Assembly (NCBI GenBank): GCA_963773285.1
Contig: CAVZAM010000006.1
Location: forward strand, 25,786-89,785
Reading direction: 5' to 3'
Source of the DNA: an uncultured delta proteobacterium
GTDB lineage: Bacteria > Desulfobacterota > Desulfobaccia > Desulfobaccales > 0-14-0-80-60-11
Length of the DNA: 64,000 bases
Below the pieces are notes generated by a model that was given only the letters and a program-made list of their open reading frames with translations, ran no database searches and was not told the origin of the DNA. The position numbers and the translations under genes were made by a program. How positions within the stretch are numbered: position 1 is the first letter of the stretch; each line of letters opens with the position of its first letter. This document shows, one piece after another, positions 2,431 through 62,117 of this stretch.

Positions 2431-2616
2431 TTGGGGGAGGGGGCTAAGGGCCGTGGGCCCTTACCCCCTCCCCCAAGCCCCCTCCCCCCATCCCTTAGTG
2501 GGGAATAAAAAAACAGGAGAAGCAGGGCCGTATCCCCGCCTTCTCCCGCCCATTAAAAGGGTTGGGAGGGGGGCCGGGGGGAGGGCAGGGAGCCGCTGCT
2601 CCCTGGCCCTCCCCCC
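2431..2616 (+). repeat. G/C-tract modular intergenic repeat, copy 1 (full length, forward)
   Basis: TTGGGGGAGGGGGCTAAGGGCCgtgGGCCCTTACCCCCTCCCCC...CCCTTAG[centre]AAAAGGGTTGGGAGGGGGG..GGGGGAGGGCAGGGAGCcgctGCTCCCTGGCCCTCCCCCC. It lies between the sirC stop and the ccsA-like start. Confidence 0.9.
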
Positions 2617-2648
2617 GCCTAACAATACATAATAAAACCGAGCGGTTG

Positions 2649-3479
2649 ATGGCCAATATTTTTTTCTCCCTGACCTTGCTGGCCTATTACAGCGCCAGCG
2701 CCCTGTTTATCGCCTATTTCCTGGCCCAGCGGGAGTCTTTCTGCCGCCTGGGCACCAGGCTCCTGGCGGTGGGGTTGGGATTTCACACCGCGGCCCTGGC
2801 TCTCGTCGCCATGACCCTGGGACGGCTGCCGGCAGCCACCCTGGGGGAGGCGCTCCTGGTTTTTTCCTGGACCTTGGTCCTGGCGTTTCTCCTGCTCTTT
2901 TGGCGCTTCCCCATCCGGGTGCTGGGGGCCCTGGCCGCGCCCCTGGCGGCCCTCATGCTGTCGGCGGGGCTCATTGAGCCCATGGGCAAAAACGCCGTCT
3001 CGCCGCTGTTAAAAAACTTTTGGGTAATGCTGCACGTCGGCCTTACCTTCCTGGGGACGGCCGCCCTGTCCCTGGCCGGCCTGGGCGGGCTGTTTTACCT
3101 GGTGCAGGAGCGCCAGATCAAGAAGAAAAAGTTCGGTTTTTTCTACCGGCGCCTGCCGTCCCTGGAGCAGCTGGACGCGCTGAGCTACTGGTGCCTTTCC
3201 GTGGGCTTTCCCCTGCTCACCGCCGGCATGGTCACCGGCTCGCTCTACGCCCAGTATACCTTGGGGAGGTTTTTCAGCTTCGATCCCAAGGAGATCCTGA
3301 CCCTCATTGCCTGGCTGATCTACGCCGTCCTCCTGCACGAACGCCTGACCGTGGGCTGGCGGGGCCGCCGGGCGGCTATCCTGGCCCTGTGCGGCCTCAG
3401 CGTCCTCATCATCACTTTTCTGGGCGGCTTATGGTTGGGGGGGTACCACAGCTTCGCCAGTTTTAGCGGGAAGCCATGA
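2649..3479 (+). CDS. cytochrome c assembly protein family (CcsA/HemX-like) integral membrane protein
   Basis: The ORF track gives 2562..3479, but the first 29 codons read through the repeat. ATG at 2649 starts a polytopic membrane protein. Its stop overlaps the hemA start (ATGA at 3476-3479), the hemA-linked position known for HemX/CcsA-like genes. Confidence 0.75.
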   Translation: MANIFFSLTLLAYYSASALFIAYFLAQRESFCRLGTRLLAVGLGFHTAALALVAMTLGRLPAATLGEALLVFSWTLVLAFLLLFWRFPIRVLGALAAPLAALMLSAGLIEPMGKNAVSPLLKNFWVMLHVGLTFLGTAALSLAGLGGLFYLVQERQIKKKKFGFFYRRLPSLEQLDALSYWCLSVGFPLLTAGMVTGSLYAQYTLGRFFSFDPKEILTLIAWLIYAVLLHERLTVGWRGRRAAILALCGLSVLIITFLGGLWLGGYHSFASFSGKP

Positions 3480-4771
3480 ATCTCCTCCTGACCGGCGTCA
3501 ATCACCAGACCGCAGGGGTGGAACTGCGTGAGAAGCTCTGCGCCCTCCTTCCCGACGCAGAGGGGTCCTTCCCCCTCCTGCTGGCCGCCCCGGAAATCCA
3601 TGAAGTCCTGTATTACGCCACCTGCAACCGGGTGGAGGTGCTGTGTGTCACGGACTCTCCGGAAGAGGCCCGGGGAGTGGTGGCTGCCTTCCTTGGCCGC
3701 CACCCGGAGGTGACCCCCCCGGACCTGGCCCGGGCCCTCTATGTGCACCAGGACCAGGAGGCGGTGCGTCACCTGTTTCGGGTGGCCGCGAGTCTGGACG
3801 CCCTGGTGGTGGGGGAGCCCCAGATCCTGGGGCAGGTGAAGGAGGCCTACCGCCGGGCCACGGAATTTCAGGCCACCGGGCCCATTTTAAACCGGCTCCT
3901 CCACAAGACCTTCACCGTGGCCAAACGGGTGCGCACCGAAACCGGCATCGGCGACCACGCCGTGAGCGTCAGCTACGCCGCCTTGGCCCTGGGCAAGAAG
4001 ATTTTCGGGGACCTGCGGGGGAAAAATGTGCTCCTGCTGGGGGCCGGGGAAATGGCCGAGCTGGCCCTGGAGCACCTGCAGGGTCAGGGGGCCGGGCGGG
4101 TCGTCATCGCCAACCGCACCCTGGAGCGGGGCTTGCGCCTGGCCGAACGTTTCGGCGGCGAGGCCGTCTCCCTGGAGGAACTGGAGTCCCAGCTGCTCGT
4201 TGCCGACATCCTGCTCAGCTCCACGGGTTCGGCCTCCTACCTCCTCACCCGGGACCAGGTGCGGGGGGTGATGCGCCGCCGCCGGCAGCGCCCCCTGTTC
4301 ATGATCGACATCGGCGTCCCCCGGGACCTGGACCCCGGGATCAACGACCTGGACAACGTCTACCTGTACAATATCGACGACCTGAAGGAAGTGGTGGCGG
4401 AAAACCGGGAGCGCCGCCGGGAAGCCGCGGTGGAGGCCGATCGCCTGGTGGCCGCCGAAACCCTGAAATTCACGGACTGGCTGAAAACGTTGTCGGTGTA
4501 TCCCACCATTATTTCCTTGCGGGAAAAGGCCCAGACTATCTGCCGGGCGGAACTGAAAAAGACTCTCGGCCACTTGGGACCGCTCACCCCCGAGCAGGAG
4601 CAGGCCCTGCTGGTCATGACCGAGGCCATCACCAACAAGCTCCTCCACGACCCCATCATCTTTCTCAAGGGCCACCACCACCGCACCCGGGGCGAGGCCG
4701 AGCTGGCCATGGTGCGGCGCCTGTTCAATCTGGACCCCACGGCCCGGGAGGAACCGCCGGAGAAGGCTTGA
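3476..4771 (+). CDS. hemA: glutamyl-tRNA reductase
   Basis: 431-aa ORF with N-terminal LLLTGVNHQTAGVELREK, catalytic-region motif YATCNRVEV, NADPH motif LLLGAGEMAE and a dimerisation helix. Confidence 0.95.
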   Translation: MNLLLTGVNHQTAGVELREKLCALLPDAEGSFPLLLAAPEIHEVLYYATCNRVEVLCVTDSPEEARGVVAAFLGRHPEVTPPDLARALYVHQDQEAVRHLFRVAASLDALVVGEPQILGQVKEAYRRATEFQATGPILNRLLHKTFTVAKRVRTETGIGDHAVSVSYAALALGKKIFGDLRGKNVLLLGAGEMAELALEHLQGQGAGRVVIANRTLERGLRLAERFGGEAVSLEELESQLLVADILLSSTGSASYLLTRDQVRGVMRRRRQRPLFMIDIGVPRDLDPGINDLDNVYLYNIDDLKEVVAENRERRREAAVEADRLVAAETLKFTDWLKTLSVYPTIISLREKAQTICRAELKKTLGHLGPLTPEQEQALLVMTEAITNKLLHDPIIFLKGHHHRTRGEAELAMVRRLFNLDPTAREEPPEKA

Positions 4772-4902
4772 GGGCCGGCCAGGTTCCATCCCGGTTCATC
4801 CAGCGTCAGAATATTTTGTTGATTATCAGCCCGGTATAAATTTTCCTTGGCCTTGACTGACACGGCTGCCGCGGAAATGTGAGTTAGTCTTCCTGATGCT
4901 TA

Positions 4903-60416: not shown

Positions 60417-61121
60417 CAGGGGATTCGCCTTAAGGACAGGATGGCCTCGGCCATCTTCAGGTCATCCGGAGTGGTGATCTTGAGGTTCAGGGGGGAGCTT
60501 GGCACCACCACCACCGTGTCCCCCATGGCCTCCACCAGGGCTGCCTCATCGGTGGCATAAAAGCCGCTGTTCCATGGCCTGCTGATAAGCCCGCCACAGG
60601 AGAGCGGCCCGGAAAGCCTGGGGGGTCTGCACCTGCCAGAGCTCCCGGCGGTCCACCGTGGCGATGATCTCCTTCCTGGAGTTGACCCTTTTCAGGGTGT
60701 CCTGGCAGGGGATCCCCAGGATGGCGCCCCCGTAACGCCTGGCCGCGGTCACCACCTGGCGCACCTGGGCCGGGCTCACCAGGGGCCTGACGCCATCGTG
60801 GACCAGGACCACGTCCAGTTCATCCTCTTTTTTCCAGAGGACCTTCAGGGCGTTGTAGACGCTGTCCTGGCGCTCTTTGCCCCCGGGGACCAGACGCAGC
60901 ACCTTCTTCAAGGGATAGGGGTCGATGACCTCCTCCTGGCAAAATTCCAGGTCCTCCGGGTGCACCACCACCAGGACCTCGTGCACTTCGGATACCCGTT
61001 CGAAGACTTCCAGGGTGTGGATCAGAATGGGTTTTCCGGCCAGCTGCAGGTAGGTCTTGGGGGTGTCCCGCTGCATGCGCACGCCTAGACCCGCCGCGGC
61101 AACGATGGCTGCCACCTTCAT
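60416..61121 (-). pseudogene. ispD: 2-C-methyl-D-erythritol 4-phosphate cytidylyltransferase, C-terminal third shifted by one extra base
   Basis: ORF 60546..61121 carries AAGLGVRM.. and VLVHDGVRP. Skipping one base at 60558-60566 continues as [41 protein letters not shown], ending at a TGA that overlaps the ispF ATG. Confidence 0.88.
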
Positions 61122-62039
61122 GCCCGGGCCTCCACGGCGCCCTGGCGGGAGACGGTGCCGGCCCGGCCGGGGAGGCGCCCCTGGTAGACCGGGCAGACAG
61201 GCAAGTCCTGCCGGTGCTTATCAAGCTCCCGGGCCCAGTCGGCCAGGCGGAAGAAGGCCACCCCCCGGTCCCGGCACCGGTCCAGAAAGCCGGCGAAGTC
61301 CGCCAGGAAAGGCCCGCCCTCCAGTTCGGCATGGAGGGTGAGGACCTGGGGCCGGCCGTTTTCCAGGCGGGCAAGGATCAGGTCGAAGAAGTCCGCCGGC
61401 GTGCACCGGTGGAATCCCACCAGCTCATCCAGGGTGGGGAGCGTCGTGGGGATTTCCAGCAAGGGACTGATCCTGGCGCCGAAGCGGGGAAAAAACGGCC
61501 GGGTCCCCCGGGTGTCGCTGGCGTAGGCAAACCCGGCTTCGGCCAGCGCGGCCCGGCTCGTTGCACTGGCCTGCCAGCCGGGCGCGGCGAAAGAGGCGGC
61601 CGGGGCTCCCATAATTTCGGTATACATGGCCTGGGCCCGGTGGATTTCCCGGTTTACTTCTTCCCGGGTCATGGTGAGCAGCTTATCGTGCCAGCCCACG
61701 TGGTCATAGCCATGGAGGCCCACTTCGTGGCCGGCGGCCCGACAGGCGGGGCAACAGGCCAAACGCGGCCCGGCCGATGCTGGGGGCCGGCAGCACGGTG
61801 CCGTACAGCATGGTGGGGAAACCGTAAACCGAAGGAGCCCGGGTACGCAGCATTTTCTCCAGAAAACCCCGCTGGCGGAACACCCGAAATATGGCCCGGC
61901 CAGAGTTGTCCGGCCCCAGGGCCACAAAAAAAGAGGCCCTGATATCCCGGGCGGCGAAAACTTTAAGGAGGGCGGGTACGCCCTCAGTCAGGCCGCCCAG
62001 GGTGTCAACGTCCACTTTCAGACCTAAACGCACCGGCAA
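61118..62039 (-). pseudogene. arnD: ArnD-like polysaccharide deacetylase (4-deoxy-4-formamido-L-arabinose deformylase type), frame broken by one extra base
   Basis: The N-terminal part VRLGLKVDVDTLGGLTEGVP..FFVALGPDNSG and C-terminal part HEVGLHGYDH.. parallel E. coli ArnD from memory. An extra G in G4 at 61748-61751 is inferred. The start (TTG 62039 or GTG 62033) is uncertain. The stop overlaps the ispD ATG. Confidence 0.75.
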
Positions 62040-62064
62040 TAGCCCTATCGACAGCGAAGCGTTT

Positions 62065-62117
62065 TGGGAGGAGGGCCAGGGACTTGCAAGCCACTGTCCC
62101 CGGACCCTCTCTTCCCA
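62065..62117 (-). repeat. degenerate G/C-tract hairpin unit (inverted)
   Basis: TGGGAGGAGGGCCAGGGAC..GTCCCCGGACCCTCTCTTCCCA resembles a decayed right-hand unit. It lies between the arnA-DH stop and the arnD start. Confidence 0.5.

Follow-up and report, generated by a model that had tools for sequence, protein, structure and literature searches.

A dense family of quasi-palindromic intergenic repeats, probably of the REP/BIME/REPIN type, in an uncultured Desulfobaccales lineage

The intergenic regions of a 64,000-nucleotide (nt) stretch of contig CAVZAM010000006.1, from an uncultured bacterium of the Desulfobaccales (hereafter, the window), repeatedly contain blocks of G- and C-tracts that can fold into stable hairpins. 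What kind of element are these blocks, how did they come to occupy so many spacers, and what keeps them there? An earlier note on this DNA listed fourteen copies of a modular repeat and did not recognize it as a known family. We report that the element is real and dense, but that it is of a known kind, i.e., similar to repetitive extragenic palindromes (REPs), bacterial interspersed mosaic elements (BIMEs), and REP doublets forming hairpins (REPINs). In our assessment these mosaic repeats, which are non-coding and quasi-palindromic, probably form a family of this type that is specific to the lineage.

A three-hairpin unit, its placement and its distribution

Copies were sought with an nhmmer profile trained on nine copies and with a covariance model (R1) trained on 20 copies from several genomes. 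Below, copies are numbered 1–14 by position along the window, and L-numbers (e.g., L187) denote related contigs or loci from metagenome-assembled genomes (MAGs) or metagenomes. Both searches identify 12 firm copies, including nine full ones (starting at 2431, 7619, 20173, 34167, 40789, 42687, 49431 on the minus strand, 54780, and 55837), one compact copy, one left half, and one right half, and neither search finds copies in the window beyond those already listed. Thus, twelve of the fourteen copies claimed stand, with coordinates accurate to within a few nucleotides, whereas the remaining two, at 38931–38975 and 62065–62117, are weak. R1 is a model of the kind that the earlier note had suggested as a check, and it recovers all 12 firm copies within the window. 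Short words taken from the unit are strongly over-represented: an 18-mer of hairpin H1 has 13 matches in the window against 0.71 expected, a 17-mer of hairpin H3 has 21 against 1.75, and a 19-mer of the C2 arm has 11 against 0.20, and in each case none of 100 shuffled sequences reaches the observed number. Together, the 14 listed stretches amount to 2,061 nt, i.e., 3.2% of the window, in line with the previous estimate of about 2 kb and 3%; this is approximately 25% of all intergenic DNA in the window.

The full unit is about 185 nt long, lacks an open reading frame (ORF), and is composed of three hairpins. H1 has the form TTGY-GGGGGAGGGGGCTAAGGG-loop-CCCTTACCCCCTCCCCC-ACR; in H2, the outer stem (CCCCCTCCCCCAATCCCTTRAG ... 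CTYAAAGGGTTGGGAGGGGGG) is conserved, and the inner hairpin that it surrounds is variable and evolves fast; and H3 has the form GGGGGAGGGCAGGGAGC-loop-GCTCCCTGGCCCTCCCCCC. The consensus proposed earlier agrees both with that of the 20 copies and with the sequences of individual copies. In copy 2 (7619..7805, plus strand), which may serve as a representative, H1 occupies positions 7621–7664, the outer stem of H2 approximately 7665–7764, the inner hairpin approximately 7702–7740, and H3 positions 7765–7805; its predicted fold has an energy of -149 kcal/mol (z = -11.1), with z about -11 on either strand. The left half of the unit is close to the reverse complement of the right half, and all full copies also match R1 on the opposite strand. 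In the window these opposite-strand matches score 59–90 bits lower, with similar gaps in the MAG loci, and hence the orientation of a copy is well defined. The unit ends in imperfect terminal inverted repeats of about 10–13 nt, and its H3 end and H1 end share a 12-nt direct repeat, CCCTCCCCCACA.

The predicted pairing is backed by covariation. The 20 copies were aligned with MAFFT, so that the alignment is independent of structure, and RNAalifold predicted 61 pairs; compensatory changes are seen at 22 of these. In the pair-count test 94.9% of the alignment cells were paired, and the 22 double-change pairs compare with 12.1±1.8 in shuffled alignments (none of 500 reached 22) and with 7–11 in slid-partner controls; in reading these numbers, template-switch repair in DNA palindromes can mimic compensatory changes without selection on RNA. 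The covarying sites are found in the inner hairpin (12 of its 13 pairs), at the apex of H1, and at the foot of H1, where the 5' TTGY is predicted to pair with the linker between H1 and H2. The outer stem of H2 and the whole of H3 are nearly invariant, one-nucleotide bulges are conserved, and a T.G pair is retained in 17 of 20 copies, which indicates constraint on sequence and asymmetry and not on pairing alone. As to the loops, the motif ACTTAC(A/G)AAAAAG recurs in those of H1 and H3, in either orientation, in L056, L001, L050, L103, L044, L084, and L002, and was not seen in the window.

The midpoints of all 12 firm copies are intergenic (P about 2e-11, given that 13% of the window is intergenic). 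The claim that every copy lies between genes is therefore correct except for two short overlaps. In copy 2, H1 contains the mnmG stop codon (TAA, 7635–7637), 19 nt inside the copy, and a Tim44-like ORF extends 24 nt into copy 13 (58284–58307), where its stop is also TAA. The part of copy 2 that is translated (7619–7637) gives MnmG a YCGGGG tail; the Tim44-like ORF in L187 stops 23 nt earlier than that of the window, at TGA. Among 38 full copies with gene context in the window and the MAG loci, 16 are in sense and 13 in antisense orientation between co-directional genes, eight are located between convergent genes, and one between divergent genes. The stop codon upstream of a copy is a median of 8.5 nt away. 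The occupied spacers are short, and their flanks are housekeeping operons, e.g., ybaB-recR and lptE-holA. The orientation of copies agrees with the local GC skew in 26 of 60 cases (9/11 in the window, 17/49 in the loci, which thus disagree); this comparison, which is confounded by gene orientation, yields no signal of a replication-strand bias.

The distribution of the family was assessed by scanning the H3 17-mer against 185,579 species genomes, the matches listed being a lower bound. The whole element is present in at least 15 assemblies, mostly labelled as Desulfobaccales, Desulfobaccia, or "delta proteobacterium", and among the matches listed the remaining 17-mer matches are single chance occurrences. 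Since Illumina short-read and long-read MAGs carry it alike, the element is not an assembly artefact but a lineage-wide family. The 36-nt G2-H3 pattern has no matches in viral contigs. At the gathering threshold of Rfam 15, only three tRNAs match in the window, and at E<=1 the copies obtain only sub-threshold scores (19–32 bits against cut-offs of 32–230), nearly all of them to generic models of miRNA precursors; thus, the repeat is indeed absent from known Rfam families, as had been suggested. Classical REPs are defined by a GTAG (or CGTC) tetranucleotide at one end of the palindrome, and a survey of such tagged REPs names no Desulfo- or delta-proteobacterial taxa (PMC3733652). We found no description of this family in the literature searched, and apparently it is undescribed so far.

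Orthologous sites, copying and decay

Copy 5, a full copy (34167..34363, plus strand; 117 bits with R1), lies antisense to ybaB and recR in the spacer between them, and its H1 has a nested 19-nt palindrome at 34186–34204. Comparison of this spacer with 80 metagenomic recR loci revealed full copies in the window, L107, L112, L113, and L158. L108 and L110 have no more than a solo H3-type hairpin there, and most relatives have unrelated sequence with no family member. The sequences that flank the solo hairpin are exactly those of the full copy; given these flanks and the 12-nt direct repeat described above, the solo hairpin is most simply explained as a deletion product. All eight sites with a family match above 25 bits have the same orientation, a count that includes matches cut off at contig ends (L111, L114, L121, L171). 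In L158, RecR is 73% identical to that of the window and the flanks of the spacer cannot be aligned, and the copy still scores 141 bits with R1; the arms are thus conserved far beyond the neutral expectation.

Closer relatives differ in structure. L187, a conspecific contig, shares 95% identity with the window along 14 kb, and structural differences are observed at three of the four firm shared sites. Copy 10 (50649..50764, minus strand; 94 bits with R1), located in the lptE-holA spacer, is compact, having lost the inner hairpin and fused the C1 and C2 arms, whereas L187 has a full copy at this site (1054–1234), its H1 bearing the nested palindrome. Copy 11 (54780..54956, plus strand; 149 bits) is a full copy in sense orientation between the nitroreductase and ABC ATPase genes; at this site L187 has no more than the left part, its centre being different, and L189 is empty. 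Copy 12 (55837..56029, plus strand; 179 bits), also full and in sense orientation, in the ABC ATPase-tyrS spacer, has a full counterpart in L187, a left half in L188, and none in L189; between the window and L187 its arms have diverged by about 4% and its inner hairpin by about 28%. Copy 13 (58284..58373, plus strand; nhmmer model positions 97–191, 67 bits) is a right half, consisting of the 3' part of the centre, the G2 arm, and H3, between the convergent Tim44-like and ddl genes; L187 has the same truncation, and L090 a full copy. No target-site duplication was found at about 50 copies, nor in the comparison of filled and empty sites in L188 and L189. In all, the "modular" appearance noted earlier is mostly due to truncation and to internal recombination between the unit's own G5AG5/C5TC5 arms, and it does not look like free assembly of modules.

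Two of these regions also contain other palindromic sequences. At the site of copy 14, a degenerate G/C-tract hairpin whose membership is doubtful (62065..62117, strand not assigned; E=0.1 with R1), L187 has a different palindromic element: positions 12440–12590, equivalent to 62040–62158 of the window, are occupied by an unrelated inverted-repeat element of about 130 nt, GGGATCAGGGGTTAGGGATCAGGG ... CCTAACCCCTGACCCC. The 316-nt Tim44-ddl spacer of L188 (3287–3602) has other C/G-tract inverted repeats (CCCCCTAAATTCCCC...GGGGGAC, CCCCCCCCTTTTGTAAAGGGGGG) and no family member.

Three window copies have one type of centre in common, and different loci, in the window and in L187, L038, and L080, have the H1 variant with the nested palindrome. 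Both observations show that the whole composite was copied as a unit. The nested palindrome itself, CACRGGCTKSMAGCCYGTG, is present in H1 of some copies and is also free-standing; its sites are window 34186–34204, L187 1197–1215, L038 (four sites), L080, L188 960–978, L035, and L078. The holA-lptE copy of L187 has it and the window copy at the same site does not.

A single copy is interrupted by a longer sequence. In L078 (CAWEWX010000024, 587–1715), the centre is split by an AT-richer insert of about 0.9 kb. This insert has a 23-nt palindrome, GGGGCGACCCGTTGGGTCGCCCC, in inverted orientation at its two ends, has inverted hairpins of its own, and encodes two adjacent minus-strand ORFs of 131 and 102 aa. 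Neither ORF has a Pfam match, and there is no evidence that this insert is an autonomous version of the element.

Nature of the family and rival explanations

The assignment to the REP/BIME/REPIN kind is based on the mosaic of hairpins without an ORF, the lack of duplications, the location after stop codons in either orientation, and the avoidance of divergent promoters, as well as on propagation as a unit, decay to halves and solo hairpins, and very long persistence. As in REPs, short imperfect palindromes are present in high copy and outside genes, here as hairpin units of 40–45 nt in 12 intergenic copies per 64 kb; as in REPINs, inverted REP-like halves are copied as a unit, judging by the opposite-strand matches to R1 and the recurring variants. 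The earlier implication that the repeat lies outside known kinds is therefore not sustained: its anatomy, placement, independence of orientation, decay products, and persistence are all of the REP/BIME/REPIN type, though it lacks the GTAG tag of the strict definition.

If so, copying of the unit to new chromosomal sites would proceed at the DNA level, through an enzyme that acts in trans and recognizes a folded single strand. The likeliest candidate would be a Y1/HUH transposase, of either the REP-associated tyrosine transposase (RAYT) or the IS200 type, as conserved bulges, a lack of duplications, and same-strand hairpins at either end are its hallmarks. Insertions would survive only outside coding sequences and promoters. 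Copies would then persist for very long times, while recombination between their own G5AG5/C5TC5 arms would generate compact forms, halves, and solo hairpins. Being transcribed within operons, the hairpins would probably serve as barriers to 3'-exonucleases or as processing sites, and not as terminators.

A search for the mobilizing gene was made in the window and in 1.14 Mb of fetched loci. No transposase is present among approximately 60 window ORFs scanned against Pfam, and a phmmer screen of the window for Y1 transposases was likewise negative, in accordance with the previous observation that neither a transposase nor a RAYT gene is visible there. The queries for this screen were RAYT and IS200 sequences used as a lead, and matches were then checked with Pfam. 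Two genes with a Pfam-confirmed Y1_Tnp domain were found in element-bearing MAGs within the fetched loci. One of them (L023, VGSW01000029, 699–1379) encodes a RAYT-type Y1 transposase of 226 aa, with no family palindromes alongside. The other, an IS200-like gene of L103 (JAUXZG010000241), is placed between inverted copies of a hairpin of about 32 nt, GGTGGGGCRGGCC....GCCYGCCTCTTWAA, an arrangement (7412–7937) that resembles a REPtron but is built on a different, rare repeat; elsewhere in the fetched loci this hairpin has a single match, in L123.

Comparison with described systems delimits the similarity. REPINs of Pseudomonas and enterobacteria, mobilized by RAYTs, are also non-coding and extragenic, have two inverted, hairpin-bearing halves forming a long quasi-palindrome, decay to singlets or halves, lack target-site duplications, persist vertically for long periods, and reach high density. 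Unlike them, the present repeat has no GTAG/CGTC tag, has a larger unit of about 185 nt that comprises three hairpins and the inner one, has extremely stable G5AG5/C5TC5 stems, and resides in Desulfobaccales; in the 1.14 Mb of fetched loci, no RAYT flanked by it was found. E. coli BIMEs and rhizobial intergenic mosaic elements (RIMEs) are similarly mosaics of several palindromes with short conserved linkers, located at 3' ends of genes and inside operons, and differing in composition from site to site. However, there is no sequence relationship, and the modules of such elements, among which IHF and gyrase serve as protein partners, are combinations of independent REP types, whereas here they look like products of truncation and recombination of one unit. 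The palindrome-associated elements (PATEs) derived from IS200/IS605 share imperfect hairpins that are subterminal at either end and lie on one strand, the lack of target-site duplications and of the inverted-repeat-dependent signature of DDE transposases, and conserved bulges and mismatches that suggest strand-specific recognition; they differ in that the repeat has no conserved tetra- or pentanucleotide target 5' of its left end, where the flanks are not conserved, and no tnpA or tnpB relative carries its ends. BOX elements of Streptococcus pneumoniae, Correia elements, and ERIC sequences resemble the repeat, by description, in having conserved ends, a variable middle, stable hairpins when transcribed, and positions in or beside transcription units. 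Their sequences and hosts are different, and neither the TA duplications and IHF sites of Correia elements nor the repeated boxB modules of BOX are seen here. Finally, the core of integron attC sites (GTTRRRY R''/R') is absent from the consensus, no integrase is encoded among the window ORFs, and the neighbours are housekeeping genes.

Several observations weigh against a mobile family of REP type. The GTAG/CGTC tag is absent from the 20-copy consensus, the feet of the hairpins being TTGY/ACR and TGT/ACA. In the fetched loci, neither Y1_Tnp gene (L023 699–1379 and L103 7454–7912) is flanked by the element. No de novo insertion distinguishes the window from L187. There are no near-identical pairs within genomes (best identity 0.95, typical values 0.80–0.90), and copies of one genome are on average hardly more similar to each other (mean identity 0.82) than to copies of other genomes (0.79); as the nearest neighbour is found in the same genome for only 18 of 38 copies, i.e., clustering is weak, there is no sign of a recent burst. 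Furthermore, at an orthologous site the arms are approximately 90–99% conserved across lineages in which RecR is only 73% identical, and such conservation fits purifying selection in place, i.e., a host function, or gene conversion equally well.

Selection in place for a host function, or homogenization by gene conversion, is accordingly the strongest rival. In one version, the repeat is a host-selected cis element whose arms are the binding site of a dedicated DNA- or RNA-binding factor, e.g., for RNA processing or stabilization inside operons or for control of the nucleoid or DNA topology, and are kept by purifying selection, mobility being ancient or irrelevant. This agrees well with the stems of H3 and outer H2, which are invariant instead of covarying and keep their bulges and one T.G pair, with the near equality of identities within and between genomes, and with the ybaB-recR copy, which retains its orientation and its score in L158 while the flanks have diverged. 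We nevertheless regard it as unlikely, because both orientations to transcription are used about equally; because the same site may be full, half, solo, or empty in close relatives, recR and tyrS managing without a copy; and because conspecific genomes differ in structure at most shared sites. Both the equal use of orientations and the speed at which given sites gain, lose, and rearrange copies speak in particular against a gene-specific function, and no candidate binding protein has been identified. A related proposal, which we find decidedly unlikely, is that of a sequence-specific structured landmark maintained by the host and selected in place, bound by a dedicated protein or acting via non-B DNA, and kept at the same sites throughout an order-level lineage because it serves to process RNA inside operons or to organize the chromosome; its machinery would not be a RAYT.

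A miniature inverted-repeat transposable element derived from a DDE-type insertion sequence is a very unlikely origin. Under this hypothesis, the ends (5' TTKY-GGGGGAGGG and, at the 3' end, its reverse complement) would be terminal inverted repeats recognized by a transposase encoded elsewhere. Imperfect terminal inverted repeats do exist, the size, copy number, and absence of ORFs are compatible, and the L078 copy has its ORF-bearing insert. But the insert offers no Pfam match and has its own inverted hairpins, target-site duplications are missing at all of the approximately 50 copies and between the filled and empty sites, and no autonomous relative sharing these ends came to notice in the 1.14 Mb of fetched loci, in which no dedicated search for one was made. 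The supposed terminal repeats are simply the feet of H1 and H3, the 5' TTGY pairing with the H1-H2 linker.

It is highly improbable that the repeat is primarily a non-B DNA feature acting via quadruplexes or triplexes formed by its tracts. The adjacent C-rich (C1+C2) and G-rich (G2+G3) tracts are purine/pyrimidine mirror repeats in the consensus and are capable of forming G-quadruplexes (G4) or i-motifs, and G4-type motifs (four runs of G3+ separated by N1-7) are concentrated in the listed copies, which hold 15 of 23 such motifs on the plus strand and 12 of 19 on the minus strand; of these 27 among the 42 motifs in the window, 25 are in the 12 firm copies and two in the weak hairpins. However, the tracts are fully complementary to neighbouring arms, covariation favours hairpins, and mirror symmetry is an automatic consequence of adjacent hairpins with similar stems.

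Ordinary Rho-independent terminators that resemble one another by chance are scarcely credible: although GC-rich hairpins lie directly 3' of genes, no T-run (U-tract) follows H1 or H3 on either strand in copies from the window and the MAG loci, the 3' flanks being A-rich, several copies are inside conserved operons such as ybaB-recR and lptE-holA, so that these are not classical intrinsic terminators, and convergence is not expected to yield a conserved 185-nt unit of three hairpins across genomes.

Individual copies, their neighbourhood and significance

The remaining copies follow the same pattern. Copy 1, full (2431..2616, plus strand; 161 bits with R1, 151 bits with nhmmer), is located between a sirohaem-synthase-like gene, which stops at 2422, and a ccsA-like gene. 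Copy 2, the representative described above, scores 171 bits with R1, and the gene flanking it matches Pfam GIDA. Copy 3 (11903..11976, plus strand), between convergent genes, is a left half comprising H1 and the start of the C2 arm; it matches nhmmer model positions 2–71 with 44 bits and R1 with 43 bits. Copy 4, full (20173..20356, plus strand; 166 bits with R1), begins 13 nt past the glmS stop and is antisense to glmS and phoU, as identified by Pfam. Copies 7 (40789..40979, plus strand; 167 bits) and 8 (42687..42880, plus strand; 164 bits) are full and antisense, the former to the cupin and radical-SAM genes on either side of it and the latter 4 nt past the stop of a purH-like gene. Copy 9, full (49431..49615, minus strand; 171 bits), is sense to the minus-strand genes and lies 8 nt past the stop of holA. 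Copy 6 (38931..38975, minus strand) is a solo H3-like hairpin and a weak member of the family, matching R1 positions 151–184 with 16 bits (E=0.027); it is similar to H3 of copy 8. The spacer downstream of dnaK has another hairpin, at 15507–15543 (AAAGGAGGG...CCCTCCTTT), with a T-run after it; this hairpin is unrelated to the family and was rejected as a member, and it looks like an ordinary terminator.

The approximately 60 window ORFs compared with Pfam are mostly recognizable housekeeping genes, and a few have no match. They include mnmG, hemA, hrcA-grpE-dnaK, phoU, glmS, glmU, the ATP synthase operon, and rodA, as well as dnaX-ybaB-recR, relA/spoT, proS, holA-lptE-leuS, tyrS, ddl, and ispDF. 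Two genes are broken: leuS is split into three ORFs in both the window (51358–53830) and L187 (1810–4298), and a VIT/VWA gene (9425–11900) is split in the window. These splits suggest either indel errors of the long-read type or pseudogenes, and the lengths of G-runs in the repeat, given possible indel errors in these genes, should not be over-read.

In this uncultured lineage of sulfate reducers, about a quarter of the intergenic DNA of the window consists of one element embedded in core operons, with practical consequences for annotation and assembly. Gene callers will be misled, since mnmG takes its stop codon from the element and spurious ORFs begin within it. Short-read assemblies are likely to break at its copies, long reads are likely to have homopolymer errors there, and transcript ends are probably shaped by it as well. 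More generally, the family extends REP/REPIN-like biology to Thermodesulfobacteriota, in the form of an untagged and unusually large and stable unit. The conservation of its arms at orthologous sites makes it a test case for whether such repeats persist via a cognate Y1 transposase, gene conversion, or host selection.

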